Positions 23,164 through 44,359 of a stretch of DNA of 63,543 bases are shown piece after piece. Source of the DNA: Gemmatimonadota bacterium. Lineage in GTDB: Bacteria > Gemmatimonadota > Gemmatimonadetes > Gemmatimonadales > GWC2-71-9. How positions within the stretch are numbered: the stretch's first letter is position 1; the number at the start of each line of letters is the position of its first letter. Under the pieces are notes generated by a model that saw nothing but the letters and a program-made list of their open reading frames with translations, was not told the origin of the DNA and ran no database searches. The stretch spans positions 1-63,543 of the forward strand of contig JANRJZ010000178.1 in assembly GCA_033763675.1 (NCBI GenBank), in the 5' to 3' direction. Made by a program: the position numbers and the translations under genes.

Positions 23164-24273
23164 CTACTTCACGGTGTACCGCCCCACCCGCTGCCCGTCG
23201 GCGTCCCGCAGGATCACGTACACCCGGCCCTCCGCCCCGAAGCCGGCCAGCGTGCTCGACTTGGGGAGCTGCACTGTCCGGACCTGCTTGCCGCTCCGGT
23301 CCACCACATCCCAGACCGGAACCGAGTCGCCGTAGGGCCGCGCCTGCTGCAGCCAGACGAAGCCCGCGGGATCGGTCTGCCCCGCGATGAAGGGCGGTTT
23401 CTCATCGGCGAACGGGTAGCTCAGCTCGATCCCCGCCGGCGCGCCCATCTGGGCCATCTGGGCCCGGAGCCGCTCGAGGAAGGCGTCCTTCTCATCCTGG
23501 GTGACGGGCACGGGGGTGAAGCTGCGTGACGGGCCGCGGGTCCACTCCCCCGAGGGCGAGCGCCAGTCCACCGCGTTGTTCGAGGCGCGCGCCGCCCAGA
23601 TGGATCCGTCGGGCAGCACGCCGAAGAGGTCGCGGCCGGAGAAGATGGTGGACACGATCTTCATCTGCTCCCCGAACTGGCCCCGGCCCCACACCGGGAG
23701 CTTGAGCCGGGCCACCGTGTCGGCGATCGTGTCGGTGAAGCGCACCCGCAGCACGTTGAGGCTGTCGAAGCCGATCTCCTCGCCCGGCTCGAGCCCCCCC
23801 AGCACCGAGCGGATGTCCTCCTTGTATCCGTGGCCGGCGTGGTCGTAGTAGAGCGGCTGGTTGTACCCCCCGACGCCGCGCCCCGGCACCACCCCCACGT
23901 ACGCGCCGGCGCCGCTCCACATGGTGGTCCGCTCCGCCGCGAAGTCCACCAGCCCGATCGTATCCCCCGCGAAGCGCAGCACGTAGCCCGGGAGCTTGTG
24001 CTTGCCCGGCGCGGGGTCGGTCGGGAGGATGGTGTCGGCGTGTTCGCCGAGGGGAGTGAACTCGCCGGAAAAACTCGCCAGCAGCAGCGTCTTGTCCTTG
24101 AGTTCCGCCAGCGCCACCCGGCCATCGGAGAGCTCCACCACATTGCTCACCTGCTGGAAGGTGCGGGGCAGGGTGGACTCGGGCTGGTCCAGGACGACCA
24201 TCGGCACGGGTGGCTCTGCGCATCCCGCCAGCAGCAGCGCGAGCGCGAAGGGACGGAAACGCCGGACCATCAT
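23164..24273 (-). CDS. Lipoprotein, member of the beta-propeller-like paralog family (copy 1 of 8)
   Basis: Lipobox LLLAGC. Its C-terminal half aligns by eye with 24303-25391 and 25484-26680 (NAVDWRSPSGEW..VPVTQDEKDAFLERL; FADEKPPF; PVWDVVDRSGKQV). Confidence 0.65.
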   Translation of the reverse strand: MMVRRFRPFALALLLAGCAEPPVPMVVLDQPESTLPRTFQQVSNVVELSDGRVALAELKDKTLLLASFSGEFTPLGEHADTILPTDPAPGKHKLPGYVLRFAGDTIGLVDFAAERTTMWSGAGAYVGVVPGRGVGGYNQPLYYDHAGHGYKEDIRSVLGGLEPGEEIGFDSLNVLRVRFTDTIADTVARLKLPVWGRGQFGEQMKIVSTIFSGRDLFGVLPDGSIWAARASNNAVDWRSPSGEWTRGPSRSFTPVPVTQDEKDAFLERLRAQMAQMGAPAGIELSYPFADEKPPFIAGQTDPAGFVWLQQARPYGDSVPVWDVVDRSGKQVRTVQLPKSSTLAGFGAEGRVYVILRDADGQRVGRYTVK

Positions 24274-24302
24274 CGGGAGGACTCCAGGGGAGGGGCGGAA
24301 GA

Positions 24303-25391
24303 CTAGTCGAGGCCGACGGGCGGCGGCGGGGGCAGGCGGAAGCGGAGCAGCCGGATCCCCGCCGCGAACGGTTCGGCCACGAGGGCGTGGGTGGCACCGA
24401 TGGCGATGATCTGTCCCAGGCCGGCGTGGCTCACCTCGCGGCGCAGCGTGCCGCGCTGGTCCACCACCTGGTAGTTCCGGAGTGAATCCCCCACCGCCCG
24501 GCTCTTCACCAGCCAGAGCATGCCGGCGGCGTCGGGGACGGCACCCTCGAACGGCGGCTTGATCGCGGCGAACGGCACCTGGGCCACGGAGGGGCGGAGC
24601 CCCGCGTCGAACCGCCGGAGGAAGAGCTCCCGGTCATTCTCGGTCACCGGCAGCACCCGGTCGGGGAGCTGGGGGCCGTGGTGGACCGCACCCAGCGTGT
24701 CGCGCCAATCCACCCGGTTCTCCGCCACCCGCGCCACCCACAGGCTCCCGTCGGGCAGGACGCCCCACCGGTCCTGCCCCGAGAGAAGTCGCCGCTCCAT
24801 CCGTCGCCGTCCCTGGCTGATCACCTCCGCCAGGTCGAGGGGCGCGAGCCGGGCCACGGTGTCGGTGACGCCACGGAGATCGGTGCGCAGCACCACGGCG
24901 GAATCCAGGTTTCCCCGCCCGTCCCGCCCCGCCACCGGCCAGATCTCGAAGTACCAGCGGCCCGCGGCGTCACGGGCGCGGGGGAGGGCACCACGGAACG
25001 CGTCTACGGCCGGGAGGGCGCCGCCGATCCGTCCCTCCAGCGACCAGGTGGTCTGCCGCCGCTGTTGCCAGTCAGCGACGTAGATCGAGTCGCTGGCGCG
25101 GAAGACGTGGAAGGGCTGCTCCAGCTCCCGGCTGCGGGGGCCGCCGAGCGGGAAGAGTCGGCGGGTCCCGAAGTCCGCCACCCCGACCGTGCGATCCTGG
25201 GGGGAGACCAGCACCCACCGGTCGCCGCCGAGCCAGGCGGCGGCGGCCACCTCCCCCTCATACGGGGCGATGATCGTGTCCGCCGCCGGCGGGAGCAGAG
25301 CCGCGGGAGCCGCGGTCTCGGACCGGGAGCAGGCGGCAATGGTGGCCAGCAGCAGCACCGGCGGGGCGAGCCGGGCGAGGGGACGGGGCAT
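24303..25391 (-). CDS. Lipoprotein, beta-propeller-like paralog family (copy 2)
   Basis: I chose the start at MPRPLARLAPPVLLLATIAAC (lipobox). Motifs shared with its neighbours: ENRVDWRD, LPVTENDRELFLRRF, IKPPFEG, NYQVVDQRGTL. Confidence 0.65.
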   Translation of the reverse strand: MPRPLARLAPPVLLLATIAACSRSETAAPAALLPPAADTIIAPYEGEVAAAAWLGGDRWVLVSPQDRTVGVADFGTRRLFPLGGPRSRELEQPFHVFRASDSIYVADWQQRRQTTWSLEGRIGGALPAVDAFRGALPRARDAAGRWYFEIWPVAGRDGRGNLDSAVVLRTDLRGVTDTVARLAPLDLAEVISQGRRRMERRLLSGQDRWGVLPDGSLWVARVAENRVDWRDTLGAVHHGPQLPDRVLPVTENDRELFLRRFDAGLRPSVAQVPFAAIKPPFEGAVPDAAGMLWLVKSRAVGDSLRNYQVVDQRGTLRREVSHAGLGQIIAIGATHALVAEPFAAGIRLLRFRLPPPPPVGLD

Positions 25392-25483
25392 GGGGCGGGA
25401 AATGTAATGCGCGGCGGTCGGGCGGGGATGGTGCGGCGTTGTGCGACCCCGACCCGGGGCCGGGCATCTTCCCGGGCGTTCGG

Positions 25484-26680
25484 ATGCTGCCGACATTCCT
25501 GACCGTTCTCCCCCGCAGGAGGGTTCCCCGCGTGCGTCGCTTGGTCAGTCTGACTCTCGTCCTGCCGCTGGCACTCTCCGCCCAGCAGGTGCCCAGCCGG
25601 GCACTGGCCACGGCGGAGGCCGAGTTTGCGGAATCCTTCGACCAGATCCTGGCGGTGAGAGAGCTTCCGTCAGGCAAGGTCCTGGTCACCGATCTCGGGC
25701 CCAAGGCGGTCCTCCTCGCCGATTTCGCCAGCGGCACCCAGAGTAACGTGGGCCGGAACGGCCAGGGTCCCGGCGAATACCAGTTCCCGGGCGAACTGCT
25801 TCCCTACCGCGGGGATTCGGTGCTGCTGGTGGACCGGGTCAGCCGTCGCTTCCTGCTCATCTCCCCCGACGGGAAGCTGGGCCGCACCATTCCGTTCCCC
25901 GACGGCCTCGGGGGGATGCCCGAGCCGCGCGGCGCCGACCGCCAGGGCCGGCTCTACTTCCAGGCCAGCCCCTTCCGCGGCGGCCCCGGGAACGGAATGG
26001 AGATCAGCGAGAACCTGCCGGACACCGTCCCCGTGATCCGTTTCGACCCGGTCACCAAGAAGGTGGACACCATCACCCGGGTGAAGATCCCCGCGCTCAA
26101 GGTCCAGACCTCCGGCAACCAGAACAGCCGTATGGTGATGATGCGCTCCCAGCCCTTCGCCGCCGCGGACGACTTGGTGGTGAGCCCGGAGGGGCGCGTG
26201 GCGGTGGCCCGCACCGGCGACTACCGGGTGGAGTGGTTCGGCGGCGCCACCCCGGTCCGCGGCGCGCCGGTGCGCTACGATCGGCTTAAGGTCGGCGCGG
26301 GGGACAAGCAGGCTTTCATGTCCGCCACGCGCAACACCCGGAACCGGATCACCGTGAACAGCGGCGGCCCTGGGCCGGGCGACGCACAGCCCCCACGTCC
26401 CCCCGAACCGTCGGCCGACGAATTCGACTGGCCGGAATACCTGCCGCCGTTCCCCGCCCGCTCGCTGCGGCTCGCCCCCGAAGGCCAGCTCTGGCTGCCC
26501 CGCTCCACCTCGGCCCGGGACTCGACGCCGGTCTACGACCTGTTCGACGCGAGCGGCAGGCACACCGGCCGGGTCACCCTGCCGCTGGGCCGTCGCCTCG
26601 TGGGCCTCGGCAAGGGCGTACTGTACGCCACCCGCACCGACGAGGACGGGCTGCAGTGGCTGGAACGGTACCGGCGGTAG
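25484..26680 (+). CDS. Secreted beta-propeller-like paralog family protein (copy 3)
   Basis: Signal peptide LVLPLALSAQQ. GRNGQGPGEYQFPG motif (NHL / 6-bladed-propeller-like). The C-terminus VYDLFDASGRHTGRVTLP...LYATRTDEDGLQWLERYRR matches the family. Confidence 0.7.
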   Translation: MLPTFLTVLPRRRVPRVRRLVSLTLVLPLALSAQQVPSRALATAEAEFAESFDQILAVRELPSGKVLVTDLGPKAVLLADFASGTQSNVGRNGQGPGEYQFPGELLPYRGDSVLLVDRVSRRFLLISPDGKLGRTIPFPDGLGGMPEPRGADRQGRLYFQASPFRGGPGNGMEISENLPDTVPVIRFDPVTKKVDTITRVKIPALKVQTSGNQNSRMVMMRSQPFAAADDLVVSPEGRVAVARTGDYRVEWFGGATPVRGAPVRYDRLKVGAGDKQAFMSATRNTRNRITVNSGGPGPGDAQPPRPPEPSADEFDWPEYLPPFPARSLRLAPEGQLWLPRSTSARDSTPVYDLFDASGRHTGRVTLPLGRRLVGLGKGVLYATRTDEDGLQWLERYRR

Positions 26681-26704: not shown

Positions 26705-27469
26705 TTACCCTGATCCGACCGCGGCACGGCCGGGACCGACGCGCCGGACCACCCCAGATCGCAGGCCCGGCACCCGGTGGGACGGTTGCCGCCCCAGGCA
26801 GCCGCTCCGCCGGAGCGCCGATTCCAGCAGCCATTCCCAGCCGGCACGGCGGCTGACCTCCGTCCAGCGGAGGTCGGTCGCGAGGCGGAGCCAGCGCCGG
26901 AGGGTCCGCGGGTCCAGCCCAGCCAGATAGGCCTGCGCCTCGAGCGTGAGGCCGTGCCCCACCCCCGCCACGATCCGCGCCAGCTCTGCCAGCCCCCGCC
27001 AGTCCCGCGCCTCGAACGGCCCCAGCGCCCGCAACCGCCGCGAGAGGGTTCGCGGGGGGTGCGGGCGGCCGCCCGAGTGGAGGCAGTCGAGCAGGAGGCC
27101 TCCGGCCGGGGACAGCCCGAGGCGCAGTTCCACCCAGCGGGCGATGCTCGCGTCCGAGGGCACCAGGCGGTGGCGCACGGCGGCGATCACCCGCTGCTCA
27201 GGAGAGAGGTGCTCAAAGTCCCCGGGATAGAGGAAGGCCCAGGTTCCGGGCACCGGCTCGAATTCGGCCAGGGTACGGGCCGGAACCCGGTGATCGGGGA
27301 GCCGGAGCACCAGGGGTGCCCAGGGTGAGATCGCGTGGGCGCTGAGGGCGCGGGCCAGCGCCGGGATGCCGTCGCTCAGGTCGGCGCACAGCAGGGTCCC
27401 CAGCCCCACGCAGAAGGGGCCAGCCGGCGTGAAGGCGGCGAAGGGCGGTTCCAGGGCGAGCAGGGTCAC
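26705..27469 (-). CDS. 254-aa HTH-like putative regulator, module A copy 1
   Basis: Paralog of 30423-31187, and identical in length if the GTG at 27469 is used (GGAGGAGG lies upstream). Shared C-terminal motif L.G/TDPRTLRRW...GWEW.LE..LRR.G. The xxDPRTLRRW segment resembles an HTH recognition-helix signature. Confidence 0.55.
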   Translation of the reverse strand: MTLLALEPPFAAFTPAGPFCVGLGTLLCADLSDGIPALARALSAHAISPWAPLVLRLPDHRVPARTLAEFEPVPGTWAFLYPGDFEHLSPEQRVIAAVRHRLVPSDASIARWVELRLGLSPAGGLLLDCLHSGGRPHPPRTLSRRLRALGPFEARDWRGLAELARIVAGVGHGLTLEAQAYLAGLDPRTLRRWLRLATDLRWTEVSRRAGWEWLLESALRRSGCLGRQPSHRVPGLRSGVVRRVGPGRAAVGSG

Positions 27470-27612
27470 GGGGCATCGGTCCTCCTCCCGCGCAGGGCGG
27501 GAGGGCGTACAGGGGGGTTGAGAGAGTAGCGCCGCCGCGGCCCCGGCGCACCGGTACCCATCCGCCTCGCCCCGCACACGATCCGGCCACGAGTGGCGCG
27601 ATCCTGTCTGGA

Positions 27613-28614
27613 GTGCGGCGCCCTCCGGCCGTAGCGTGCGGGGTGCAGACTCCCCCTGAGCCCCGCGCCCGCCGCCCCCGTGCCGCAGCCACCGTCTTTC
27701 TGATGGCGTCCCTTGCGCTGACCGTCAGCCCCCTGGACGGGCAGCGCTGCGGGCCGGAGGCGCTTCACCTGGAGCAGCTGGCGGTGCAGCCGCTGCCGCC
27801 GCACTTCGGCATCGATGGCGCGCTGTCGCTCGCGGATGGGGGCTACGCGCTCTGGTCCGCGGAGAGCGCCCTGCTCTTCATGTACCCGGATGGCCTCCGG
27901 GAGCGGCGCGCGCTGCCGGCCCTGCTCCACCCGGTCGGGCTGGCCGCCGACCCGGCCGGCTACCGCTTCCTCGATCGCGCCACCGGGATCGAGTACCGGC
28001 TCGGGGCCGACAGTATCCCGGAGCGGATCGGCGCCATGCCGCTCGCGCCCGGAGAGGAACTGGACGCCGCCCGCTGGAGCGACGGCGCATGGACCCTCGG
28101 TCTCCGCGACACCCGCGCCCGGCGCTTCCTGGTGCGGCGAGTGGACGGGGCCGGGGTCACCACGCTGTTCGCCTCCGCCGCCGCCGACTCGGTGCGGCAC
28201 ATCTCCCGATATCACCTGAGCGAGACCGGGTCCGCCCTCCTCCTCACCCGGCTCACCGAGCCGTTCGAGGTGCTGCGCCTGGAGCTCGCGACGGGCCGGG
28301 TGGATACCCTCGCGGTGCCGTTCCGGGACGCGGCACTCCGCGCGGCGCTGCCGGACACGGTGGCACAGTGGCGCGCGCTCCCCGCGGTGGCGCTCGACTG
28401 CGGCTGGCTGCTCACCCTGAGCGATCTCCGGAGCGACCGACGGCTGCTGCTGCGGTACGACGCCTCGGGCGGGCTCGCCAAGGTGACCCCGCTCGATGCC
28501 CCCTTCGGGGTGATGGCCGGGCGGCCGGCGGAGGGCACGCTGCTCGCCGCCCGGCGGGCCGGGGAGCTGGAGCTGGTCTGGTATCAATGGCGCTGGGTCC
28601 GGCAGGACCACTGA
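27613..28614 (+). CDS. ~330-aa hypothetical protein, module A copy 1 (propeller-like tail)
   Basis: Paralog of 31598-32554. Shared motifs: LSDLRSDRRLLLRYDASG..PLDAPFGV versus IADLRSDRRTIVRYDSAF..PIDAPWSI. It is divergent from the 254-aa gene. The start is uncertain (the GTG at 27613 or downstream). Confidence 0.6.
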   Translation: MRRPPAVACGVQTPPEPRARRPRAAATVFLMASLALTVSPLDGQRCGPEALHLEQLAVQPLPPHFGIDGALSLADGGYALWSAESALLFMYPDGLRERRALPALLHPVGLAADPAGYRFLDRATGIEYRLGADSIPERIGAMPLAPGEELDAARWSDGAWTLGLRDTRARRFLVRRVDGAGVTTLFASAAADSVRHISRYHLSETGSALLLTRLTEPFEVLRLELATGRVDTLAVPFRDAALRAALPDTVAQWRALPAVALDCGWLLTLSDLRSDRRLLLRYDASGGLAKVTPLDAPFGVMAGRPAEGTLLAARRAGELELVWYQWRWVRQDH

Positions 28615-28643
28615 CATCACGCACCACGAAAGGACTTGATCCG

Positions 28644-29102
28644 ATGAGACTCATGATTCGCACCGGCGCGGCCCTGGCCGCCCTGCTGCTCACCCTCGCC
28701 GTCGCCCCCACGCAGGCGCAGGTCACCGCCTCCCTGTCGGCCGTGACCGGCATGGCCAGCGCCACCACGCTGGAGAAGAAGCCCGGCTGCTGGGGCTGCG
28801 TCTACCCGTCGACGGGCGGCGTGTGCGTCGGGGGCTTCGTGCCCGGCTACTGGAACTGCACCCAGGTCTTCGGGGACTCCTGTTCCCTCAGCAGCCCGGG
28901 GTGTGGCGCGGGCGCCAGCCTGCCGCTCGACCCCGACGGCGCCACCCAGTACGTCTCGCGCGGCCGGGTGCTCGGGATTGAGGCCGGGCTGACGATTGAC
29001 GAGGCTGAATTCCGGAATTGTGAGGGCGCCATTGTTGCGCGGCGTCAGGCGGCTGACCAGATTGCAGCCGTCCGGGACCGGACGGCGACCCTGACGCTCT
29101 GA
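28644..29102 (+). CDS. Secreted 7-Cys protein (152 aa), module A copy 1
   Basis: Signal peptide MRLMIRTGAALAALLLTLAVAPTQAQ. Cys-rich core CWGC..GGVC..GYWNC..DSC..PGC, then NCEGAIVAR. Paralog of 32551-32979. AAGGA lies upstream of the ATG. Confidence 0.65.
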   Translation: MRLMIRTGAALAALLLTLAVAPTQAQVTASLSAVTGMASATTLEKKPGCWGCVYPSTGGVCVGGFVPGYWNCTQVFGDSCSLSSPGCGAGASLPLDPDGATQYVSRGRVLGIEAGLTIDEAEFRNCEGAIVARRQAADQIAAVRDRTATLTL

Positions 29103-29124
29103 ACCCGGTCCCGGACCCATCGCC

Positions 29125-30309
29125 ATGCGTGCCATGACATCTGCCGGTCTGGTGCTGCTGCTCGCGGCGGCACCAGCCGCGCTCCCGCCCGGGTTACCAT
29201 CCCGGGTGGACCTCGCGCCCGATTCCACCTTCGTGCTTCCGGACAGCGTCCTGGCCCAGCTCACACTGGTCACCGACCTGGCGCTCGATCCCGACGGCTC
29301 CCTCTACCTGGTGGACCGGAACTTCCCGGCCGTGCTGCACTTCGAGCGGAGCGGGGCGCTGCGCCGCATCATCGGCCGCCGGGGCGGCGGGCCCGGGGAG
29401 TTCAGCTACATCTACAGGGTGGGCGTCACCCGCGACTCGCTCTGGGCGGTGGATCCCGGCCTGCTCCGGATCACCATCTTTCCGACCAGCGGCGGGGGAC
29501 AGGTGACCGTCCCCTTCGGCTCCTCGCGCAACGATGCCGCCAGCGCGGTGCGCGAACCGGTCCGGCGCGGCATCCCCGCCGTGATGCTCGCCGATGGCGG
29601 CTTCGTGGTGGAAGACGCCCTCGGCATGGAATCCACCGGCGGGGTGCCCACCAGCATCGCGGTGCTCCGCACCGACCGGGACTTCGTCCTCCGGGACACG
29701 GTTACCGTGCTGCCCTTCGGCCATACCCCGCTCCGGTTTGTCTATCGCAACGGCGAAGCGCATTTCATGCAGCCGTTCAGCGACGACCCCACCATCGGCT
29801 ACGCCTCGGATGGCTCGCTGATCGCCCAAGTCAACCGCACCGCGGCGCGGGGGAGGGCGGAAAGCAGCTTCACCGTCACGGCCTGGCGCGGGGACGGGCG
29901 GCGGCTCTGGCAGCGCGAGGTGGCCTACCGGCCGGCCCGGATCACCCGCGCCATGGTGGACAGCGTGGCGGAACTGCTGGGCGGGATCCAGGACCCGCAG
30001 ATGCCGGCGCGCCCGGTGACCCCGGATTCGATCCGGGCCCGGCTGTACCGGCCGCCGATGCTGCCCCCGGTGGAGCAGGGGGTGGTGGGGCGGGATCAGA
30101 GCGTCTGGCTCAAGGTGCGCTTCGCCGATTCACCGCCCGGGCGGGCCGAGTGGCTGCTGCTTTCCCCCAGGGGGTTCCCGCTCCAGCGGGTCAACACCGA
30201 CGCGGGCTTCCGGCTGCTCGAGGCCGAGCGCGCGATGCTCTGGGGCGTGGAGGGGGATGCCGATGACATCCCGCGGGTGGTGCGGTATCGGGTATCCATG
30301 AACAGTTAG
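29125..30309 (+). CDS. Beta-propeller-like paralog family protein (copy 4), module A copy 1
   Basis: Signal peptide. Motif IGRRGGGPGEFSYIYRVGVTRDSLWAVDPGLLRITIF, very close to copy 5 (IGRRGRGPGEFLDIRSLGFSGDSLWVYDPAQLRITFW). Confidence 0.72.
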   Translation: MRAMTSAGLVLLLAAAPAALPPGLPSRVDLAPDSTFVLPDSVLAQLTLVTDLALDPDGSLYLVDRNFPAVLHFERSGALRRIIGRRGGGPGEFSYIYRVGVTRDSLWAVDPGLLRITIFPTSGGGQVTVPFGSSRNDAASAVREPVRRGIPAVMLADGGFVVEDALGMESTGGVPTSIAVLRTDRDFVLRDTVTVLPFGHTPLRFVYRNGEAHFMQPFSDDPTIGYASDGSLIAQVNRTAARGRAESSFTVTAWRGDGRRLWQREVAYRPARITRAMVDSVAELLGGIQDPQMPARPVTPDSIRARLYRPPMLPPVEQGVVGRDQSVWLKVRFADSPPGRAEWLLLSPRGFPLQRVNTDAGFRLLEAERAMLWGVEGDADDIPRVVRYRVSMNS

Positions 30310-30334
30310 GCGGGCGGGAAGGGTGGAAGCGGCG

Positions 30335-30368
30335 CAGCCCCCGTGCCACGCGAGTGGTGCGGGGGCTG
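30335..30368. terminator. Strong hairpin between convergent genes (likely bidirectional terminator)
   Basis: cagcccccgtgccac / GCGA loop / gtggtgcgggggctg. This is a 15-bp stem with two G-U pairs, followed by GTAGTTAT. Confidence 0.55.
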
Positions 30369-30422
30369 GTAGTTATCGGGGGTGTGGTTGGTGCAGCGCT
30401 GCCGGTCGGGGCCCGCGCCGGC

Positions 30423-31187
30423 TCACACCCCGGTTAACGCCGGCTGCCGCACCGCGCCCGAGGCCCGCCGGCTGGCCCCCGGCCACGTCACATAGCCGAA
30501 CCGCCGCAGCATGGCCTCCAGCTTCCACTCCCACCCGGGTGTGTCGAGGATGACGTGAGCGTCCACCCGCAGCAGCTCGGCGCTCCAGCGGCGGAGCGTC
30601 CGGGGGTCGGTGTCCGTGAGCCAGGCCTGCTGCTCCACCGAGCCCGCGGCGTGCGACTCACTAACGCGCAATAACCGGGTGAATGCGTCCCACTCCCGGC
30701 CGCGCAGCGGGCCGAAGGCCGCAAGCCGGCGGTCGAGCGCGCTCCGGGAGCGGGGTGGCGCTACCGTCGCGGGGTCGGTGTCGGTGTCGGGGAGGGTCAG
30801 CACATCCTCGATGGCCGCCCGCAGCTCCCGCGGCAAGCCCCGCGTGGCGCAATAGCCGAGGAGGTCGGTGCCGAGCGGCTGCGGACGGCTGCGGATGGCC
30901 TGGAACAGCCGTTCCGTCTCTCCCTCGAAGCTGCCCACCAGCGCGGCGGCGCCGCGCGGCAGGTGGGGCAGCGCCCTGGCGAGATCGGCCGGGGGAATCT
31001 TCTCCTCCACGAGCACCACCACCGCGCACCAAAGGGCGGCTCGGAGCGACTCGGCCACCGGCGCTGGGTGCCGGGCCGCGCGGCGGAGGTCCATGACCAC
31101 GGCATCCCCGAGGGAGGGGAGGACGCCAGGCTGCCAGGGTACCAGCGTGCGCGAGACCGCGCAGAGGGTGCGGAGGGGGTGGGGCAT
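30423..31187 (-). CDS. 254-aa HTH-like putative regulator, module A copy 2
   Basis: Paralog of 26705-27469 (TDPRTLRRWSAELL...PGWEWKLEAMLRRFG). It has the same orientation relative to its module. Confidence 0.6.
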   Translation of the reverse strand: MPHPLRTLCAVSRTLVPWQPGVLPSLGDAVVMDLRRAARHPAPVAESLRAALWCAVVVLVEEKIPPADLARALPHLPRGAAALVGSFEGETERLFQAIRSRPQPLGTDLLGYCATRGLPRELRAAIEDVLTLPDTDTDPATVAPPRSRSALDRRLAAFGPLRGREWDAFTRLLRVSESHAAGSVEQQAWLTDTDPRTLRRWSAELLRVDAHVILDTPGWEWKLEAMLRRFGYVTWPGASRRASGAVRQPALTGV

Positions 31188-31597
31188 GGGGTGCCAGATG
31201 GTACGGTGCAGGGGGTGAAGGCAAGCTAGCGGGTCAGAGTGGGTCCCGCCAGCGAGTGCTACGGCCAGCTCGGCGCCTCAAGCGGAAGCGCCGAAGTCAT
31301 CTTGCTCGCCTCGCCGGGGTGCGTCGCGGATGGCACAGTGCAGGTGGAGGATCAACCAATTGTCAAATGAGCCGGACGGTCTTGCTCACGGTAGGTGGCT
31401 GAGTCCAGAGTACAGGAATCGCGCAGGGACGCGTGATTCGTGTATGGCGTGAAAGGCTGGGCGCATCCATGCTGTGTGCGGACGGCCGGAATCGGAGCGG
31501 ATGTTGGCCAGTCGCTCCAGCGGCCTCCGGCACCGCATAGCGCCCGACTTAGGCCATGCGATCACGATCACCAGCAGGATGGTTCGTGCGCTACCTG

Positions 31598-32554
31598 ATG
31601 CCATGCACGGCCGTGGTGCTTGCCACCTGGTCTTGTTCCGATGCGGAGTCGCACCCCCCCAAGCTTGATCTTGTGGAGCGTGGGCGACTCACCCTGCCCG
31701 CCGGCTTCATTGCATCAGGTGTCTCGCAAAGCCAGACCGGTGCCGTCGTTGCATGGTCTAGCGTCGCCCCAGAAGTGCTAGTCTGGAGAAGTACTGCGGA
31801 GTCGCTTGCCATGGGCAGGCGGGCAGGGGTAACCGTCGAGGCAGACTACATAGGTGACACTCTTCGTTCAGTGGATGAGCTCGGTCAGGTCTGGGTCTCC
31901 GCGCCTATCGGGACCAACGCGGAACGAGTGGCGCGCATACCCATTCGAGCCAGCGAGCGCGTACTCGCCGCCCAGCCAAGCGCCGGCTTCTGGGTCGTCG
32001 CGCTCCAGCGGCGTGGTCGCAGCGCGGACGTTCAGCTCGCCTTCTGGCGGCCACCTATGGACAGCCTCAGTAGGACACCAACGACGATCAGCACGAGCGC
32101 GGCCGGGATGGTCTGGCTGGGACCGGCTGGGACTGCATCAGGGCTGGTGTCCGTCTCCTCGCTCCCGGACGTGGCGTACCGTGCGAAGCCTGAGGTTCCG
32201 ACTCTTGATCGCCTCGACTTGGATGTGCCGGGACAATTCCGGGCGGTGAATCAGCCGTTCGCGCTGCGATTTGCCGGCATGCCTCTTGTGCCAATAGCGA
32301 CCGGATACATCCGAGTCATCGCTGATCTCCGCAGCGATCGGCGCACCATCGTGCGGTATGACTCAGCGTTCGCGGTTCGCGCATGTGCTCCGATCGATGC
32401 GCCATGGTCTATCGTGGCGGCGACTCCCTCTGGCGGAAGCCTGGTGGCACTGGCCGGCGGGGATCCCCAGCACCTCATCGTATACGAAGTTCAGGAGTCC
32501 CCTGGGTCAAGGCAGGAAGTCACTTCAACTCACGAGAATCGAGGTTGCGAATGA
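31598..32554 (+). CDS. ~320-aa hypothetical lipoprotein, module A copy 2
   Basis: I chose the start at MPCTAVVLATWSC (lipobox-like). Paralog of 27613-28614. Confidence 0.6.
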   Translation: MPCTAVVLATWSCSDAESHPPKLDLVERGRLTLPAGFIASGVSQSQTGAVVAWSSVAPEVLVWRSTAESLAMGRRAGVTVEADYIGDTLRSVDELGQVWVSAPIGTNAERVARIPIRASERVLAAQPSAGFWVVALQRRGRSADVQLAFWRPPMDSLSRTPTTISTSAAGMVWLGPAGTASGLVSVSSLPDVAYRAKPEVPTLDRLDLDVPGQFRAVNQPFALRFAGMPLVPIATGYIRVIADLRSDRRTIVRYDSAFAVRACAPIDAPWSIVAATPSGGSLVALAGGDPQHLIVYEVQESPGSRQEVTSTHENRGCE

Positions 32555-32979
32555 GAGGACTCACTGGCGCCGTATTGACAGCGCTCGCGACAATCGTCGG
32601 CCTGAGCTATCCTTCAAGCACTCCCCTCACCGCGGAGGAGGCGACGCTCTGCCGAATCTGCGAACCCGGCGGTGGGGGCGGCGTCACCGGCCCGAATGAG
32701 GGGTGGAACTGCGCCTATTCCTCCCCCGGGTACAAGGGCTGCACAATCGCGGGTGGAATGTGTTCGAACTATGTCTGGGCACACTGCGGCGTCGCCTCAC
32801 TTCAGGTGATCCCTGTTGGTCTTGACGGGACACTGATCTGGGTCGCGGCTGCCGATGCTCCTCCCATGCAGCCGGCGTCGGACGGCTACACGAGACTCTG
32901 CGATGGAGCGATCGTCGCACGTGGGCCGCACCACGCGGTCGAGGTGGCGTGGGAAACCCCCAGCCAGATTCGGATCTAG
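32551..32979 (+). CDS. Secreted 7-Cys protein (142 aa), module A copy 2
   Basis: ATGA overlap with the upstream gene. Motifs: N-terminal hydrophobic segment, CRICEPGGGGG, EGWNC, KGC, GMC, AHC, LCDGAIVAR. Paralog of 28644-29102. Confidence 0.65.
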   Translation: MRGLTGAVLTALATIVGLSYPSSTPLTAEEATLCRICEPGGGGGVTGPNEGWNCAYSSPGYKGCTIAGGMCSNYVWAHCGVASLQVIPVGLDGTLIWVAAADAPPMQPASDGYTRLCDGAIVARGPHHAVEVAWETPSQIRI

Positions 32980-32998
32980 CGCCGGAAAGCTCCCTGAA

Positions 32999-34189
32999 AT
33001 GCTGCGAAGCAGGAACTTCCTTCCTTGGATGGCTGCCCTGGCGGGCGGTGGGCTACTCTCGCCAGGACAGCCACCCCGCGCCTTTCCCGCACCCGAGTGG
33101 AGGCTGGGGAGAGCCACGGTCATCGTACCCCGGGACGGCCCTGATGCCATCCAGCGGTTCGGGCCCATGGTCATCTCGGCAGAGGGTGCGATCTACGTGG
33201 CGGATCTGGCAGAGGCTCGGATTGGTGTGTTTGACTCCCTCGGGCGCCGAATGACCTGGATCGGACGGCGAGGGCGCGGGCCCGGAGAGTTCCTTGATAT
33301 CCGGTCACTGGGATTCAGCGGGGACAGCCTCTGGGTCTACGATCCAGCCCAACTTCGCATCACGTTCTGGAGTCTCACCGGCAAGCTCCGCACGTCAGTT
33401 TCACAAGACCGCTTCACCCATGGCAGGGTCGCGAGCGACTACCGTGTCCATGGACTCATGAAGGGAGGCGCCGCGCTTGTCGCCCAGACTCGCCGGCCAC
33501 CAACGGCTCCTGACCGCGGGGTGGACCCCCTGGTGTTTGAACTGATTCACGGCGCGAATGGCACCCCAGATACGCTGCTGGTTGCCGACATGTCCCATGA
33601 CTTGGCGTACCTCTGGGTGGCGGCCGGCCCGGTTGGCACACAGTACCAGCCATTTCGCGATGGGCCGCTCTCCGGCCCAAGCCCGGAGGGCGATGTCCAC
33701 GTGGTCGTCCACAGAGAGGCTCCTCGCCGCGGCCAATCAGGGCAGATCAGGGTTCTCAGAACCACATTCCCGGATCGCCGAGTTTCACGACAGACGATCG
33801 AGTTCACCCCGTCCCGCGTCCCTCCTGGCACCGTGGATTCCCTGCTCCAAAGCTTCGCCGGACACCTGGTGGCGATGCGGATCTACCCAAACACACAAGC
33901 GGCAATCAGGGAACTGCGGAGACGTGTTTTCCTCCCTGGCTGGTATCCCCCCATCTCGGATGCACGATTGGATCGCGAGGGGCGTCTGTGGCTGGCTGAT
34001 CCCGCGATCAGCGATCGGTCGGGCAGGCAGCCAACACGCTGGAGCGTGTACGCAGTGGACGGTCGCCTTCTTGGTGTGGTGTCCCTGCCTGCGCAGACAG
34101 TCCTGCTCACTGCATATCGAAAGAACCTGTTCGTCTTGCAGGCCGACTCGGAAGAGCGGGACGCCCTGGTGCGATTCCAAATTGAGTAG
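32999..34189 (+). CDS. Beta-propeller-like paralog family protein (copy 5), module A copy 2
   Basis: I chose the start at MLRSRNFLPWMAALAGGG. GRRGRGPGEF motif. The C-terminus is family-like (LFVLQADSEERDALVRFQIE). Confidence 0.7.
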   Translation: MLRSRNFLPWMAALAGGGLLSPGQPPRAFPAPEWRLGRATVIVPRDGPDAIQRFGPMVISAEGAIYVADLAEARIGVFDSLGRRMTWIGRRGRGPGEFLDIRSLGFSGDSLWVYDPAQLRITFWSLTGKLRTSVSQDRFTHGRVASDYRVHGLMKGGAALVAQTRRPPTAPDRGVDPLVFELIHGANGTPDTLLVADMSHDLAYLWVAAGPVGTQYQPFRDGPLSGPSPEGDVHVVVHREAPRRGQSGQIRVLRTTFPDRRVSRQTIEFTPSRVPPGTVDSLLQSFAGHLVAMRIYPNTQAAIRELRRRVFLPGWYPPISDARLDREGRLWLADPAISDRSGRQPTRWSVYAVDGRLLGVVSLPAQTVLLTAYRKNLFVLQADSEERDALVRFQIE

Positions 34190-34461: not shown

Positions 34462-35625
34462 ATGACCGACCCCCGCCGCCGGCACTCCCGGGCGCGCCGT
34501 GCCGCACCGCTCGCGGCGCTGCTCGCCAGCCTCCTCCTCCCCGCCTGCAAGGGGAAGGACGCCGGCGCTACTAGCGAGCCGCCCCCGGGCGCGACCGCCG
34601 ACGGTGACACCGCCGCCGCCTCGGGCAGCACCATCTCGCTGCCGGTCACCGGGGCCCTGGTCCGGCGCGGGGACCTGGTGCTCTCCATTGCCACCACCGG
34701 TCAGGTCCGTTCCGAAGCTGTCGCCCAGCTCAAGGTGGAAACCAACGGCACCGTGAACGAGGTGCTGGTGAAGCCCGGCGCCGTGGTCACCAAGGGGCAG
34801 GTGCTGGTCCGCCTGGATCCACGACCCTTCGACCTCGCCGTCCGCGAGGCGCAGGCCGCCCTCGACGAAGCCAACATCCGCCTCCAGGCCAACCTGGCCA
34901 GCGACTCGATCCTGCTTACTACGACGCAGGACGCCGAGCGGCAGCGGAACGCGGTGGCGCTCTCCGGCGTCCCCGGCGCGCAGGTGCGGCTGGAGCGCGC
35001 TCGGCTCGACCAGGAGCGCGCCACCATCACCGCCCCCTTCGATGGCATCGTGGATCGCATCGAGGTGGCCGCCGGCTCGCGAGTCAACTCGGGACAGGAC
35101 ATCGCCACGGTGGTGGACATGACCCACCTCCGCATCGAGGCCCAGGTGCTGGAGCATGACCTGCCGTTCGTGCGGGTGGGCGGCGAGGCCCGCATCTCCG
35201 CCCCCGCAATGGGCACCGACCCGCTCCGCGGCCGGATCACCGCCGTGCTGCCGCTGGTGGATACCGTGGCCCGCGCCGGTCGCGTGGTCGTGAGCGTAGG
35301 CGCCGGCGGCCGGTCGCCCCTCCGCCCCGGGTCGTACGCCGACCTCCGGCTCGAGGCCGCCCGCCTCCCCGATCGCATCATGGTCCCTGCCGCCGCCGTG
35401 ATCGAGCGCGACGGCCGCCCCCTCGTGTTCGTGGCGAAGGAAGGCCGCGCCCAGTGGGTGTACATCGTCCCCGGCCGGTCCAACGGCAGCGACACCGAGG
35501 TGCTCCCCGATTCCTCCACCGGTGAGATCCCGGTGGCCGTGGGCGACACGGTGCTGACCTCCGGTCACCTGACGCTGACGCACGACGCGCCGGTCCGGGT
35601 CACGCCCGCCGCTTCGCGTCCGTGA
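34462..35625 (+). CDS. RND efflux periplasmic adaptor (MFP/HlyD family), lipoprotein
   Basis: Lipobox LLLPAC. Barrel-sandwich and coiled-coil pattern (V.KGQVLVRLD, L..A.....A...L.RA.L....A.I.APFDG.V). Confidence 0.85.
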   Translation: MTDPRRRHSRARRAAPLAALLASLLLPACKGKDAGATSEPPPGATADGDTAAASGSTISLPVTGALVRRGDLVLSIATTGQVRSEAVAQLKVETNGTVNEVLVKPGAVVTKGQVLVRLDPRPFDLAVREAQAALDEANIRLQANLASDSILLTTTQDAERQRNAVALSGVPGAQVRLERARLDQERATITAPFDGIVDRIEVAAGSRVNSGQDIATVVDMTHLRIEAQVLEHDLPFVRVGGEARISAPAMGTDPLRGRITAVLPLVDTVARAGRVVVSVGAGGRSPLRPGSYADLRLEAARLPDRIMVPAAAVIERDGRPLVFVAKEGRAQWVYIVPGRSNGSDTEVLPDSSTGEIPVAVGDTVLTSGHLTLTHDAPVRVTPAASRP

Positions 35626-38600
35626 GCATCGCCGCCGCGGCGGTCCGGCGCCCCGTCACCACCATCGCCGCCACCCTCGCCCTGGTCCTCCTGGGTGCGG
35701 TGTCACTCGGCCGGCTCCCGGTGGCGCTGCTGCCGGATGTGACCCTTCCCGTGCTCACCATCCGCACCATCTACCCCGGCGCCGCCGCCACCGAAGCCAG
35801 CCGCTTCGTGGCCGAGCCGGTGGAAGAAGCCATCGCCGCCACACCGGGGCTGGTGGAAGTGCGCTCGGTGAGCCGCAACGGGGAGGTCACTACCACCGCA
35901 CGGTTTGCCTGGGGCACCGACATGGCGGCCACGGTGCTCGCGGTCCGCGAGCGGCTGGACAACGCCCGCAGCCGGCTCCCCGAGACCGCCGAACGCCCCA
36001 CCCTGCTCACTTCTGATCCGGGGCAGCGGCCGATCGCCGTGTTAGGCGTCTCCGGCACGGGGGAGCTCCGCTCCACCGCGCTGGTGGCGGAGCAGGTACT
36101 CGCCCGCCGGCTGGAGCAATTGGACGGGGTGGCCAGCGTGGCCGTGACCGGCGTGCCGGAGGACGAGATCCGGGTGGAGCTGGACCCGGCCCGGCTCCGC
36201 ACCCTGGGCCTCACCCCCGACGACGTGGTGCAGGCCATCCAGGCCGCCAACGTGAGCGCCCCCGGCGGGACCATCCGCCGGGGCCAGTTCCGCTTCTCGG
36301 TGCGGGCGCTCACCGAGCTGCGGCGGATCGAGGAGTTCGCCGACATACCCGTCGGCCCGTCGGCCCGTCGGTCCAGCGTCCGCCTGCGCGACATCGGCAC
36401 GGTCTCCCTCGCCACGGCGGAGCCGCGCACCCTCACCCGCCTCGACGGCGGGCCCGGCATCGGGCTCGTGGTGTACAAGGACGCCGGCGCCAATACCGTC
36501 GCCGTCACCCGCGACCTCGAGGCCGCGATCGCGCAGCTGGCGCGGGAGTTCCCCGCCTTCTCGCTGCGGCTGGTGGCGGCGCAGGCCCGCTTCGTGAACG
36601 ACGCCCTCTCCAACCTGACCCAGGAGATCGTGATCGGCGGCGCGCTGTCGCTGCTGGTGATCCTGCTCTTCCTCCGCGACTGGCGCAGCGCCCTCGCCAT
36701 CGGGCTGATCGTGCCGCTCTCGGTGCTGGTCTCCCTGACCGCACTCCAGCTCCTCGGCGTCACCATCAACGTCCTCTCCCTCGGCGGCCTGGCCCTGGGC
36801 GTCGGCCTGCTGGTGGACAACGCCATCGTGGTGGCGGAGGCCAGCGGCCGATTGCGGGAGACCGGCATCCCCCGGGCGCAGGCGGCGCGCGACGCCGCGG
36901 ACCAGGTCATGGGGCCGCTGATCGCCGGGACGCTCACCACGGTGCTGGTCTTCGGGCCGATCGTCTTCGTGCGCGGGCTGGCGGCGGCGCTCTTCCGCGA
37001 CCTCTCGCTGGCGGTGGTGACCAGCCTCGCGGACGCGCTGGTGCTGGCGCTGACGCTGATGCCGGTGATGCTGGCGGGGAGGCGGGACGGCTCGGCGGCT
37101 CGGCGACTCGGCGACTCGGCACCGCGGCCGAGCCGTCCAGCCGCCGAGCCGTCGAGCCGTCTCACCGCCTTTGGTCACCGTCTGGCCGAGTCCTACGAAC
37201 GCGGCATGATGTGGTGCCTCGACCACCCGCGCGCCGTCTTCCTCTCCGCCATCGCCGCGACCGCCGTCGCCGTGGTCCTGACCCTGCGCCTGCCGCGGGA
37301 GATCCTGCCCCAGGTGGACGAGGGGGTGGCCATCGCCACGCTGCGGCTGCCGGAGGGCACAGCCATCGAGGAAACCGTCCGTCAGGCCGCGCGCCTGGAG
37401 TCCGCGGCGCGGGAGCTGGGGGCGCAGGGGCTCTACACCCGCGTCGGCTCCGCCACCGACGAGGAGCTGGTGGCCGGGGCCGAGCCGGGGGGCGCCAACT
37501 TCGCGCAGCTGCTGATTCCGGTGCGCACCGGGCTCCCCGCCGCGCGCTTCGCCGAGGCGCTGCGCCAGAAGATCCCCGACCTGGCGCAGGGGTCGCTCGC
37601 CATTGACCTGGCGGGGCAGTCGGAGTTCGGCAGCCTGATCGGCCGCGAGGGGCGGCTCATGCGGGTGGAGGTGAGCGCTCCCACCGTCACCGAGGCTGCG
37701 CGTTTCGCCGACAGCGTGCAGCACGCCCTCCGCGCCATCCCCGAACTCTCCGACGTGCGCGACGCCTACGCCGGTACCCAGCCGGTGGTGGAGCTGGGGC
37801 TCGAACGGGAGCGGCTGGCGCTCCGGGGCATCACGGTGGACCAGGTGGCCAGCGCCATCGCCGGCGGGCTCTCCGGCGTGGAGGCGAGCGAACTGCGCGA
37901 GACCGACCGCCGCACCACCATCCGGGTGCGTTATGCCGGCGCCGCCAGCGAGGACCTGCAGACCGCCCTGGCCGCCACGGTGGACGGCATCCCGGTGGGG
38001 CAGCTCGTGACCGTGAAGGAGGTGCGGGACCCGGTGGAGGTGGTCCGGGTGGACCAGCGTCCGGTGCAGGTGGTGGAGGCGGCGGTGGAGCGGGGCGGCA
38101 CCGCGCGGGCCGTCAGCTCCATCCAGGACGCATTGGGCCGGCTCAAGGCGCCGGCGGGGCTCACCTGGGAGATCGCGGGGGCGGACATCGAGCAGCGCCG
38201 TACCATGCAGGAGCTGACGGTGGTCGCGGTGCTGTCGGTGGCGCTGATGTTCCTGGTGCTCGCCGGGGAGTTCGCCAGCTTCACCACGCCGCTGCTCGTC
38301 ATGCTGACGGTGCCGCTCGCCGGGGTGGGCGGGATCGTGGTGCTCTGGCTCACCGGCCAGAGCCTCAACGCGGTGTCGCTGATCGGCATGGTGGTCATGA
38401 TCGGCCTGGCGGACAACGATGCGGTGGTCAAGCTCGACGCCATCCGCCGGTTCCGTGCCCAGGGCCACTCGGTCCGCGACGCGGTGCTGCTCGGCGGGCG
38501 GCAGCGGCTCCGCGCCATCGCCATGACCTCGCTCACCACGATTGTGGGTGTGCTGCCCCTGGTCTTCGGCTGGGGCAGCGGCGGCGAGCTGTACCAGCCG

Positions 38601-38759
38601 CTCGCGGCCGGGGTCATCGGCGGCTCCATCACCGCGACGCTGGTGACCTTCTTCCTGCTGCCCACCGCCTACGCCATGGTGGAGCAGCGCGCCGAGCGGC
38701 GGGCCGCGGAACTCGTGGTTGGGCCATCGCCCAATCGCCCAATCGCCCAATCGCCGTGA
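35622..38759 (+). CDS. RND efflux permease (AcrB/MdtB-like), first of a tandem pair
   Basis: 1045 aa with 12-TM AcrB architecture: N-terminal AAVRRPVTTIAATLALVLLG, the LGGLALGVGLLVDNAIVV motif, and duplicated halves. GTGA overlap with the adaptor gene. Confidence 0.9.
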   Translation: MSIAAAAVRRPVTTIAATLALVLLGAVSLGRLPVALLPDVTLPVLTIRTIYPGAAATEASRFVAEPVEEAIAATPGLVEVRSVSRNGEVTTTARFAWGTDMAATVLAVRERLDNARSRLPETAERPTLLTSDPGQRPIAVLGVSGTGELRSTALVAEQVLARRLEQLDGVASVAVTGVPEDEIRVELDPARLRTLGLTPDDVVQAIQAANVSAPGGTIRRGQFRFSVRALTELRRIEEFADIPVGPSARRSSVRLRDIGTVSLATAEPRTLTRLDGGPGIGLVVYKDAGANTVAVTRDLEAAIAQLAREFPAFSLRLVAAQARFVNDALSNLTQEIVIGGALSLLVILLFLRDWRSALAIGLIVPLSVLVSLTALQLLGVTINVLSLGGLALGVGLLVDNAIVVAEASGRLRETGIPRAQAARDAADQVMGPLIAGTLTTVLVFGPIVFVRGLAAALFRDLSLAVVTSLADALVLALTLMPVMLAGRRDGSAARRLGDSAPRPSRPAAEPSSRLTAFGHRLAESYERGMMWCLDHPRAVFLSAIAATAVAVVLTLRLPREILPQVDEGVAIATLRLPEGTAIEETVRQAARLESAARELGAQGLYTRVGSATDEELVAGAEPGGANFAQLLIPVRTGLPAARFAEALRQKIPDLAQGSLAIDLAGQSEFGSLIGREGRLMRVEVSAPTVTEAARFADSVQHALRAIPELSDVRDAYAGTQPVVELGLERERLALRGITVDQVASAIAGGLSGVEASELRETDRRTTIRVRYAGAASEDLQTALAATVDGIPVGQLVTVKEVRDPVEVVRVDQRPVQVVEAAVERGGTARAVSSIQDALGRLKAPAGLTWEIAGADIEQRRTMQELTVVAVLSVALMFLVLAGEFASFTTPLLVMLTVPLAGVGGIVVLWLTGQSLNAVSLIGMVVMIGLADNDAVVKLDAIRRFRAQGHSVRDAVLLGGRQRLRAIAMTSLTTIVGVLPLVFGWGSGGELYQPLAAGVIGGSITATLVTFFLLPTAYAMVEQRAERRAAELVVGPSPNRPIAQSP
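37089..37158. repeat. Inverted pair of octamer arrays (4x GGCTCGGC-type, 6-nt spacer, 4x GCCGAGCC-type) inside the RND CDS
   Basis: ggctcggc ggctcggc gactcggc gactcggc accgcg gccgagcc gtccagcc gccgagcc gtcgagcc. It translates as SAARRLGDSAPRPSRPAAEPSSR, in the TM6-TM7 cytoplasmic linker. Confidence 0.9.
38720..38755. repeat. CGCCCAAT octamer array (about 4 units) forming the last codons of RND-1, immediately before the RND-2 start
   Basis: gggccat cgcccaat cgcccaat cgcccaat cgcc, then GTGA (start/stop overlap). It translates as GPSPNRPIAQSP. Confidence 0.9.
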
Positions 38760-41761: not shown

Positions 41762-41932
41762 GCGGGGAATCGCCTGGCAACTCCGCAGCACCACCTTCGC
41801 GCCATGGACCGGCCTGTGAGTATCATCCGGGCAGCAACCAGTGATGCGGGCACACTGACGGCGAACAGGGATGCGACGATACACATTGCTGACCACACAG
41901 CGAGCGCTCGTGTGCGGGAACCTGGGCGCGGT

Positions 41933-43060: not shown

Positions 43061-43081
43061 AGGCGGAAACTCGCCGTGATC

Positions 43082-43186
43082 GCCGTCGGGCTCCTGCGGC
43101 GCCCTCGCGCTGGCCCCCGCGGCGGCACCGTGGCCGGCACCATCGGTGCGATGTTCCTGCTGCCGCCGATGCTGGTAAGGCGGTAG
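43082..43186 (+). pseudogene. Degenerate copy of the last ~100 nt of the RND-2 gene (includes its stop codon)
   Basis: Aligns by eye with 41642-41761 (gccgtcggg ... ggccggcaccatcggtgcgatgttcctgctgccgccgatgctggtaaggcggtag), with a few substitutions and a short deletion. Confidence 0.8.
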
Positions 43187-43236
43187 GGCGGGAAGGGCGG
43201 TAGGGGGCAGTAAGGAGCTGTAAGGGTGAGTGGTTA
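43174..43236. repeat. G-rich 8-nt periodic array (GGCGGTAG / GGCGGGAA / GGGGCAGTAA... family)
   Basis: ggtaaggc ggtagggc gggaaggg cggtaggg ggcagtaa ggagctgt aagggtga. The same arrangement occurs at 45663-45722. Confidence 0.7.
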
Positions 43237-44318: not shown

Positions 44319-44359
44319 TCCCCGGGGGTACTGGGGTCGTGACCCGCAACCACGCGCAA

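Follow-up and report, generated by a model that had tools for sequence, protein, structure and literature searches.

Two paralogous four-gene modules of Gemmatimonadales: a cluster conserved across the order and a strain-variable cassette

Gene content and paralogy of the two modules

The window analyzed here is the whole 63,543-nucleotide stretch of contig JANRJZ010000178.1 (assembly GCA_033763675.1), which comes from a Gemmatimonadota bacterium. It contains two adjacent four-gene units (module 1 and module 2, eight genes) with the same layout, R(−)|A-C-P(+), in which a minus-strand gene for a putative regulator (R) diverges from plus-strand genes for an exported protein (A), a secreted Cys-rich protein (C), and a secreted beta-propeller of the NHL/DUF5128 type (P). 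Module 1 consists of R1 (26705–27469, minus strand), A1 (27613–28614 from the start of its longest open reading frame (ORF); about 300–330 amino acids (aa)), C1 (28644–29102; 152 aa), and P1 (29125–30309; 394 aa). Module 2 consists of R2 (30423–31187, minus strand), A2 (31556–32554, with an alternative start at 31598), C2 (32551–32979; 142 aa with 7 Cys), and P2 (32999–34189; 396 aa), each a paralogue of its module 1 counterpart. Both R genes measure 765 nt and encode 254 aa when the GTG at 27469 is taken as the R1 start, a choice backed by the N termini of the R1 orthologues; the ORF positions and the equal R lengths reported in an earlier note on this DNA were borne out. Within the A-C-P blocks, neighboring genes are separated by 29, 22, or 19 nt, and the A2 stop overlaps the C2 start by 4 nt. 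Because of this tight packing or overlap and the signal peptides of the products, A, C, and P are probably expressed from one transcript. Judged from their sequences, each unit appears to combine one unclassified regulator of DNA-binding type with three exported proteins and to be restricted to the order Gemmatimonadales.

The earlier note had proposed that the two modules share an identical architecture and that all four counterparts are paralogous. BLASTP aligned R1 with R2 at 31% identity (E 4e-14), A1 with A2 at 28% (E 3e-12), and P1 with P2 at 24% (E 2e-20), whereas the alignment of C1 with C2 (28% identity) reached an E value of only 3e-3. Because the C1/C2 pair was weak by BLAST, independent profiles were built from three distant orthologues only (loci L003–L005), with no window sequence in them. 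These profiles retrieved R2 (E 9e-22, 68 bits), A2 (E 6e-19, 58 bits), C2 (E 1.3e-8, 25 bits), and P2 (E 4e-37, 118 bits) and gave no cross-family matches. The proposed architecture and paralogy were confirmed at 24–31% identity and profile E values of 1e-8 to 4e-37, and every pair proved significant, C1/C2 through the independent profile. The shared motifs that had been quoted for the paralogues were all found, except that P1 reads RDSLW and not GDSLW.

Module 1 is a fixed gene cluster across Gemmatimonadales

The nearest public contigs were Gemmatimonadetes/Gemmatimonadaceae metagenome-assembled genomes with approximately 90% nucleotide identity to the window. A genome scan with the A profile returned 19 loci, all from Gemmatimonadales and all with the same gene order and a U-type propeller (a paralogue of P, see below) before R, and a metagenome scan with the R profile returned 79 further loci. 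R1-type genes (at least 48% identity to R1) diverged from an A-C-P block in about 29 of the 29 loci with enough flanking sequence, the three A homologues at 40–52% identity all lay in R(−)|A-C-P(+) loci, and a U-type propeller stood directly before R wherever flanking sequence was available. All orthologous loci showed the R|A-C-P order, across a sequence divergence of more than 50%, and R, A, C, and P diverged at similar rates between loci. These results show that module 1 is a fixed gene cluster conserved across Gemmatimonadales. The earlier suggestion that the four genes form a functional unit was supported by the recurrence of R(−)|A-C-P(+) in every locus found with A or R1-type queries, down to approximately 40% identity. 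With regard to independent occurrence of the families, A and C were found in the R|A-C-P context only, and R1-type genes always occurred together with A-C-P.

Module 2 is a replaceable cassette next to R2

In blastn comparisons with the closest relatives, nucleotide homology ran through P1 and R2, ended 44–90 bp past the R2 start (window position 31231 or 31277), and resumed at 34324, just before an efflux operon of the resistance–nodulation–division (RND) type. Within the R2-A2 spacer, conservation between strains was limited to 31188–31280. The variable cassette delimited by the breakpoints against L001, L006, L068, and L002 (31232–34323, plus strand) contains A2-C2-P2 and their promoter region and has a GC content of 63.9%, compared with approximately 73% in the flanks. 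Low GC content was common to four independent variable cassettes, the variable segments having 62.7–63.9% GC in genomes of approximately 72–73% GC. R2 orthologues were 80–87% identical and stood beside three different cassettes. The slot is filled by A2-C2-P2 in the window, by another A-C-P allele that is just 25–31% identical in L001/L006, and by genes for a Cys peptide, a DsbA-like protein, and a propeller in L002; in L003/L009, there is no second unit, and module 1 abuts the RND genes. No orthologue of A2, C2, or P2 above 31% identity was present in any retrieved locus. R2 is part of the conserved flank, not of the variable cassette.

R2-type genes (33–45% identity to R2) head diverse cassettes. 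They were found with A-C-P (window, L001/L006, and L020), with a D-type propeller (a more weakly related type, see below) and a CPWC thioredoxin-like protein (L041), with a propeller alone, and with a small Cys-rich peptide, a DsbA/Thioredoxin_4 protein, and a propeller (L002 and L005). The DsbA/Thioredoxin_4 gene of L002 (1173–1847, minus strand) scored 66.2 bits with PF13462 against a threshold of 23.2 bits. Module 2 is a swappable cassette that differs between close strains and not a recent duplicate. The term "duplicated" used in the earlier note, taken as a simple tandem duplication, was not supported; the paralogy is ancient and A2-C2-P2 is a strain-variable, low-GC replacement cassette beside a conserved R2.

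The RND efflux operon (34462–41761), which encodes a membrane-fusion protein (MFP) and two tandem pumps of approximately 1000 aa, lies directly downstream of the cassette and forms its conserved right flank, with 94% nucleotide identity to L001. The R2 orthologue of L002 (2339–3104) falls into two ORFs, of 176 and 83 aa, and may be frameshifted or a pseudogene.

R defines a family of putative local regulators

R1 is cytoplasmic and consists of an alpha/beta N-domain followed by a helical C-domain, which contains a helix-turn-helix (HTH)-like motif, DPRTLRRW...GWEWxLE. An AlphaFold2 model built with 99 family sequences had a predicted local distance difference test (pLDDT) score of 92.2 and a predicted template modeling score of 0.85, with the alpha/beta N-domain at residues 4–99 and an eight-helix domain at residues 106–222. 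Only three word-level relatives of R2 were found. An exhaustive profile search recovered 264 family clusters at 50% identity, 118 of them with an E value below 1e-10. Nearly all members have approximately 250 aa, and the family is seemingly confined to Gemmatimonadota-like high-GC metagenomic contigs.

Pfam gave just a weak HTH_29 match for R1 (E 0.056) and no match for R2. When 17 family members were compared with Pfam, HTH_18 was matched once (E 2.8e-4) and HTH_AraC twice (best E 0.01), and no member exceeded the Pfam HTH threshold for the AraC/XylS domains (PF12833/PF00165). The 99-sequence R profile aligned with MarA at an hhalign probability of 0.8%, which is below significance; in this alignment, the R motif SLE..A..G.DPRTLR was paired with HTH1 of MarA, again without significance. 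Whole-chain Foldseek searches with the model gave a best E value of 0.16 in the PDB, where the Ada N-domain had a probability of 0.20, and a best E value of 0.087 in BFVD, where an AraC/XylS-type protein had an E value of 0.29 and a probability of 0.51. The weak Foldseek lists consisted mostly of HTH proteins (MarR-type, VpsT, Ada N-domain, and AraC/XylS-type). There was no significant Pfam or PDB match for R despite the pLDDT-92 model and no match for the N-domain with its PWCP motif. The assignment of R to AraC was not upheld, as it fell below significance in Pfam, in hhalign against MarA, and in Foldseek on both PDB and BFVD.

In its general organization, R resembles AraC/XylS-like one-component regulators, in which a sensor domain precedes a C-terminal helical HTH domain. 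It has approximately 250 aa in a two-domain layout, it diverges from its presumed target operon with a conserved palindrome in the common spacer, and family members stand beside many different operons. The pattern sLE..A...G.DpRTLR......G lines up with MarA HTH1, without significance, and the top named weak structural match is an AraC/XylS-type domain. R differs from these regulators in remaining below the Pfam HTH threshold and in having nothing at E < 0.08 in PDB or BFVD by Foldseek.

Distant R relatives (32% identity or less) adjoin unrelated genes, namely those for a beta-lactamase-family protein, an M20 peptidase, and a TonB receptor, or for a helicase and Fae, and such varied contexts are the pattern of a local transcription factor family. 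The earlier reading of R as an HTH regulator is favored by four indirect lines (the helical C-terminal domain in a confident model, the weak AraC/HTH matches, the palindrome, and the contexts of distant relatives), but no comparison was significant. R appears to represent a new family of local regulators whose fold is confidently predicted yet unclassified.

Two further contexts of R were observed. L025 encodes a protein of 539 aa (P0118, 832–2451) that joins a complete R-type domain to a YncE/lactonase-like beta-propeller without a signal peptide, and a sigma-54 activator is encoded divergently beside it. The protein may be either a genuine regulator–sensor fusion or an assembly artefact. In L066, L071, L084, L089, and L105, distant R members (27–30% identity; the L066 gene at approximately 4743–5519) lie beside genes for a secreted beta-lactamase-family protein, an M20 peptidase, and a TonB-dependent receptor. 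The recurrence of this context suggests a second conserved regulon type of the R family.

The exported proteins A, C, and P

A carries a signal peptide and contains two invariant Cys, and its C terminus is rich in Trp (ELVWYxWRWV). Its 45 homologues are all from Gemmatimonadetes and all unannotated, and the profile search yielded no Pfam match and no PDB chain match. The earlier note had placed two propeller-type partners in each module. For A, this was not supported, since its profile showed no relation to P and U (hhalign probabilities of 2.1% and 3.1%, respectively) and the PDB profile search was negative, and A was dropped as a propeller candidate. The true start of A1 is probably either GTG 27643, from which a proper signal peptide results, or ATG 27703, the start used in the public gene call; the longest-ORF start at 27613 falls within a conserved intergenic block.

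C carries a Sec-type signal peptide ending in AxA-Q, and all 24 distinct sequences retrieved have exactly seven Cys in the mature protein of approximately 125 aa. The earlier description of C as secreted and Cys-rich therefore holds. The framework reads CWxC-x8-C-x10-C-x7-C-x6-CG followed by RNCEG[VI][VI]VAR, and a C-terminal RTGTLTL is conserved; C1 itself has the CWGC opening, RNCEGxxVAR, and a C-terminal RTxTLTL-COOH. From this pattern, C is predicted to be a disulfide-type protein with seven Cys. No relative was found in Pfam, NCBIfam, or the PDB. A match to RNase A in the PDB profile search (E 0.023) was judged spurious because it is carried by Cys residues and composition and misses the conserved C-terminal motif.

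P was correctly described as a propeller, and its type is NHL/DUF5128. P2 scored 31.0 bits with PF17170 (DUF5128), above the gathering threshold of 22.9, and matched solved NHL domains of Thin (6d69; E 6.3e-10) and TRIM2 (E 1.4e-5), with residues 58–140 only being aligned. P1, with 21.5 bits, was slightly under the threshold yet is homologous to P2. P shares with the six-bladed propellers of the DUF5128 (PF17170), TolB-like (PF15869), and NHL groups its blade motifs (GxGPGEF...DSLWV.D...RI), its export or lipoprotein nature, and its occurrence in multi-paralogue arrays. It differs in that the family models cover only its first one or two blades, with P1 under the cut-off, and in that the link to A, C, and R is specific to Gemmatimonadales. 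No functional study was found in the literature on DUF5128, NVEALA, and TolB-like propellers.

The window contains eight propellers (P1, P2, U1–U3, and D1–D3), so that P-type genes also occur outside both modules, three at 23164–26680 and three at 41804–48002. P and U1–U3 are homologous over their full length (hhalign 99.6%), and the relation of P to D1–D3 is weaker. U3 (25484–26680, plus strand) is a secreted NHL-type paralogue, convergent with R1, and a conserved neighbor of module 1. U1 and U2 are minus-strand lipoproteins; together with the plus-strand U3, they keep their synteny with module 1 in every related genome.

Conserved elements in the intergenic regions

The alignment of 21 orthologous R-A spacers revealed a CAGGGG that is invariant and close to the R start, a GC stem, a TAGAGT-like box, a palindrome, and a TAnnnT box. 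The palindrome of the window is an imperfect one with an adjoining motif (27584–27611, plus strand; CGCC-N6-TGGCGCGAT-N-CTGYMTGG) that is conserved across the 21 spacers and is followed downstream by the TAnnnT box (TAGCGT, 27632–27637, plus strand). The window has a single occurrence of the composite palindrome motif, where 0.04 would be expected. The palindrome is read as a protein-binding DNA site because substitutions between loci break base pairing, and for the same reason an RNA hairpin was rejected. The site at 27584–27611 is a candidate R1 operator and a candidate promoter element of the A1 operon, probably beside the −35 region of the A1 promoter. A sigma-54 promoter in this spacer (TGGCGCG-N-CTGCA) was also considered and rejected, as its GG and GC are one base too close together and half of the loci lack the GC. 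The divergent R1-A1 intergenic region had been placed at 27470–27612; with the likely A1 start at 27643 or 27703, the control region extends beyond these limits.

The R1 leader contains a GC-rich 8-bp inverted repeat (27484–27504; CCTCCCGC-N5-GCGGGAGG), with equivalent stems in orthologous loci. In L003–L024, a stem-loop just upstream of the R start codon is kept with differing sequences, and this persistence despite sequence change points to a possible RNA structure in the R leader.

The previously noted hairpin (30335–30368) was confirmed as a 15-bp GC-rich stem in the spacer that separates the convergent genes P1 and R2, and the whole spacer folds with −65.4 kcal/mol (z = −2.4). The hairpin may act as a bidirectional terminator-like element, and it is missed by a simple terminator scan because it has no T-tract. 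Simple promoter and terminator scans, Rfam and tRNA scans, and PADLOC and PHROGs searches gave nothing.

Several propeller loci contain small Cys-rich secreted peptides

When small ORFs encoding a signal peptide and four or more Cys were sought, approximately 20 convincing genes were found at nine loci (L004, L005, L010, L020, L022, L040, L041, L079, and the window), all within 2 kb of propeller genes, and no credible gene of this kind in 343 kb of propeller-free loci. The small peptides found elsewhere in cassettes have 4–10 Cys. Their families include TTCQAVGCFGGxPGCYWY, TDYPTTCQWNGCP, and CENDAC...YNC...CKSTxC, and none matched a Pfam family. A Cys-rich product and a propeller were paired in every cassette variant. 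This pairing provides a first contextual clue to what the very large expansions of six-bladed beta-propeller/DUF5128 proteins do.

In L020 (10809–11316) and L022 (10818–11287), two tandem genes for small Cys-rich peptides (TTCEAIGCGGRYF... and TSCQGIGCHGRAY...) sit right after the P gene of module 1 and before another propeller gene and an R2-type gene.

Possible function of the modules and alternative explanations

We tentatively read each module as a locally regulated operon whose three exported proteins act together in the cell envelope; the architectural side of this reading is well founded, and its functional side is conjecture. R would bind the palindrome and control the divergent operon in response to a ligand, for which its alpha/beta N-domain would be the sensor. 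The Cys-rich secreted protein and a cognate propeller that may bind, chaperone, or neutralize it would form the functional core, and A, or the DsbA/thioredoxin-like protein of the alternative cassettes, would serve as an accessory for folding or assembly. Module 1 would be the conserved "core" version, and the R2 slot would swap low-GC cassettes via homologous recombination in the conserved flanks.

Several observations weigh against this reading. A, C, and P have no assigned biochemical function, the AlphaFold2 model of C was unusable (pLDDT 54 with 44 sequences), and the modules contain no transporter, protease, or recognizable immunity gene. DNA binding by R is inferred, R having no significant similarity to any DNA-binding family. 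The palindrome motif was not found in the R2-A2 spacer, and R2 is conserved while the adjacent cassette changes, which together indicate that R2 may not be cassette specific. Module 1 is fixed in position and conserved order-wide, unlike typical bacteriocin or toxin loci. Finally, the association of propellers with Cys-rich peptides was scored by an ad hoc filter and not by a calibrated test.

A slot with diverse low-GC cassettes fits diversifying and probably interbacterial roles, such as toxin/immunity-like or signal/receptor-like pairs. One speculative and rather doubtful possibility along these lines is a polymorphic class of secreted effectors with cognate binders, in which R-headed operons would encode a hypervariable disulfide-rich product together with a folding helper (A or a DsbA-like protein) and an NHL propeller that acts as an immunity protein, a receptor, or a maturase, with one recombination-swapped slot. 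The periplasmic propeller-like immunity protein Tsi1 is a precedent (PMC3391265). As in the Tse1/Tsi1 pair, an exported beta-propeller-type protein is encoded here beside a secreted partner, and the loci are polymorphic between strains; in contrast, the modules lack a type VI secretion context, and C has no recognizable enzymatic toxin domain.

Among the other explanations that have to be weighed, it is unlikely that C and the Cys peptides of the sister cassettes are bacteriocin precursors, or precursors resembling ribosomally synthesized and post-translationally modified peptides (RiPPs), with P and A as maturation or immunity proteins of an antimicrobial-peptide island. The peptides are hypervariable with conserved Cys frameworks, there is a dedicated DsbA-like gene, and the cassettes are low in GC and strain specific. 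The sublancin locus, sunA-bdbA-bdbB, is a disulfide-containing bacteriocin locus with a dedicated thiol-disulfide oxidoreductase. Sublancin-type loci likewise combine secreted Cys-rich products with a DsbA/thioredoxin-like gene (found here in the sister cassettes), and they are strain variable with atypical composition. A small secreted Cys-rich product lies beside accessory genes in the sister cassettes and in an array at 41.8–48.0 kb of the window; C itself has approximately 125 aa and is conserved order-wide, and module 1 is a conserved core locus. Furthermore, the products carry Sec signal peptides and not leader peptides, the partner is a propeller and not a membrane immunity protein, and no ATP-binding cassette (ABC)/C39 or ABC/peptidase exporter, radical S-adenosylmethionine (SAM) enzyme, LanM-type enzyme, or other known maturase was detected; the eight module proteins showed no exporter, protease, or maturase domain in Pfam, NCBIfam, PADLOC, or PHROGs.

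A periplasmic redox enzyme with A, C, and P as subunits is improbable as well. Quinoprotein amine dehydrogenases pair a propeller heavy subunit with a small subunit that is rich in Cys and holds a cross-linked cofactor, and their maturation involves a thioredoxin-like factor. The composition here is similar, as the modules encode a propeller and a small exported protein rich in Cys and the sister cassettes contain thioredoxin/DsbA-like genes; in addition, C has an odd, invariant seventh Cys and conserved Trp residues, and module 1 is conserved like a housekeeping function. However, the C profile compared with all PDB sequences found no MauA/QhpC-type chain and only the weak RNase A match, genes for a MauG-like haem protein and an electron acceptor are absent from the modules, haem and radical-SAM genes are absent both from the modules and from their surroundings, P has no conserved metal or catalytic residue sets beyond the NHL scaffold motifs, and the hypervariability of the partner cassettes would be atypical of enzymes. 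We consider it very improbable that the modules are an envelope stress or metal-handling system with C as a periplasmic thiol-rich metal or redox buffer tied to the adjacent RND operon. Such a role would suit a Cys-rich periplasmic protein encoded directly upstream of an MFP, with faint CusB/CzcB-type matches, and two RND pumps, both in the window and in L003/L009; the RND adjacency is not kept elsewhere (e.g., L004 and L005), the Cys spacing resembles a disulfide framework in a Sec-exported protein, and no regulator of a metal-sensor family is present. Each of these three explanations is missing either the accessory genes that would define it or a context that is conserved. That the modules are mere neighboring paralogues of an expanded propeller family, with the four genes uncoupled, is hardly credible: propellers are abundant, with eight in the window, but the strict R|A-C-P order over more than 50% divergence and the confinement of A and C to it contradict this view.

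No known system matches the modules; R, A, and C are unannotated families that are restricted to Gemmatimonadota as far as the searches reach. The general layout is familiar, with a divergent regulator, an operon for exported proteins, and a polymorphic cassette slot. R, A, and C have no annotated or solved relative, yet they belong to one of the most rigidly conserved clusters of an abundant, little-studied soil and water phylum. The R2 slot offers a clean natural example of cassette replacement and a possible source of new antimicrobial or signaling peptides. Overall, the loci represent a well-supported new gene cluster and regulator family that bears on no long-standing question.

A tandem propeller–peptide array downstream of the RND operon

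A tandem array was observed at 41600–48002, with units of approximately 2.45–2.5 kb and 64.6% GC. Three products are encoded per unit, namely a lipoprotein propeller of the D type, a thioredoxin-like CPWC protein with a membrane anchor, and a secreted six-Cys peptide of 70–72 aa. The D-type NHL propeller lipoproteins are located at 41804–43060, 44240–45484, and 46863–48002, the thioredoxin-like proteins at approximately 43406–44014 and 45891–46523, and the peptides at 44100–44318 and 46644–46856. Copies of 111 nt from the 3′ end of an RND pump gene, one per array unit, were found at 41659–41769, 43084–43194 (75%), and 45572–45682 (97%).

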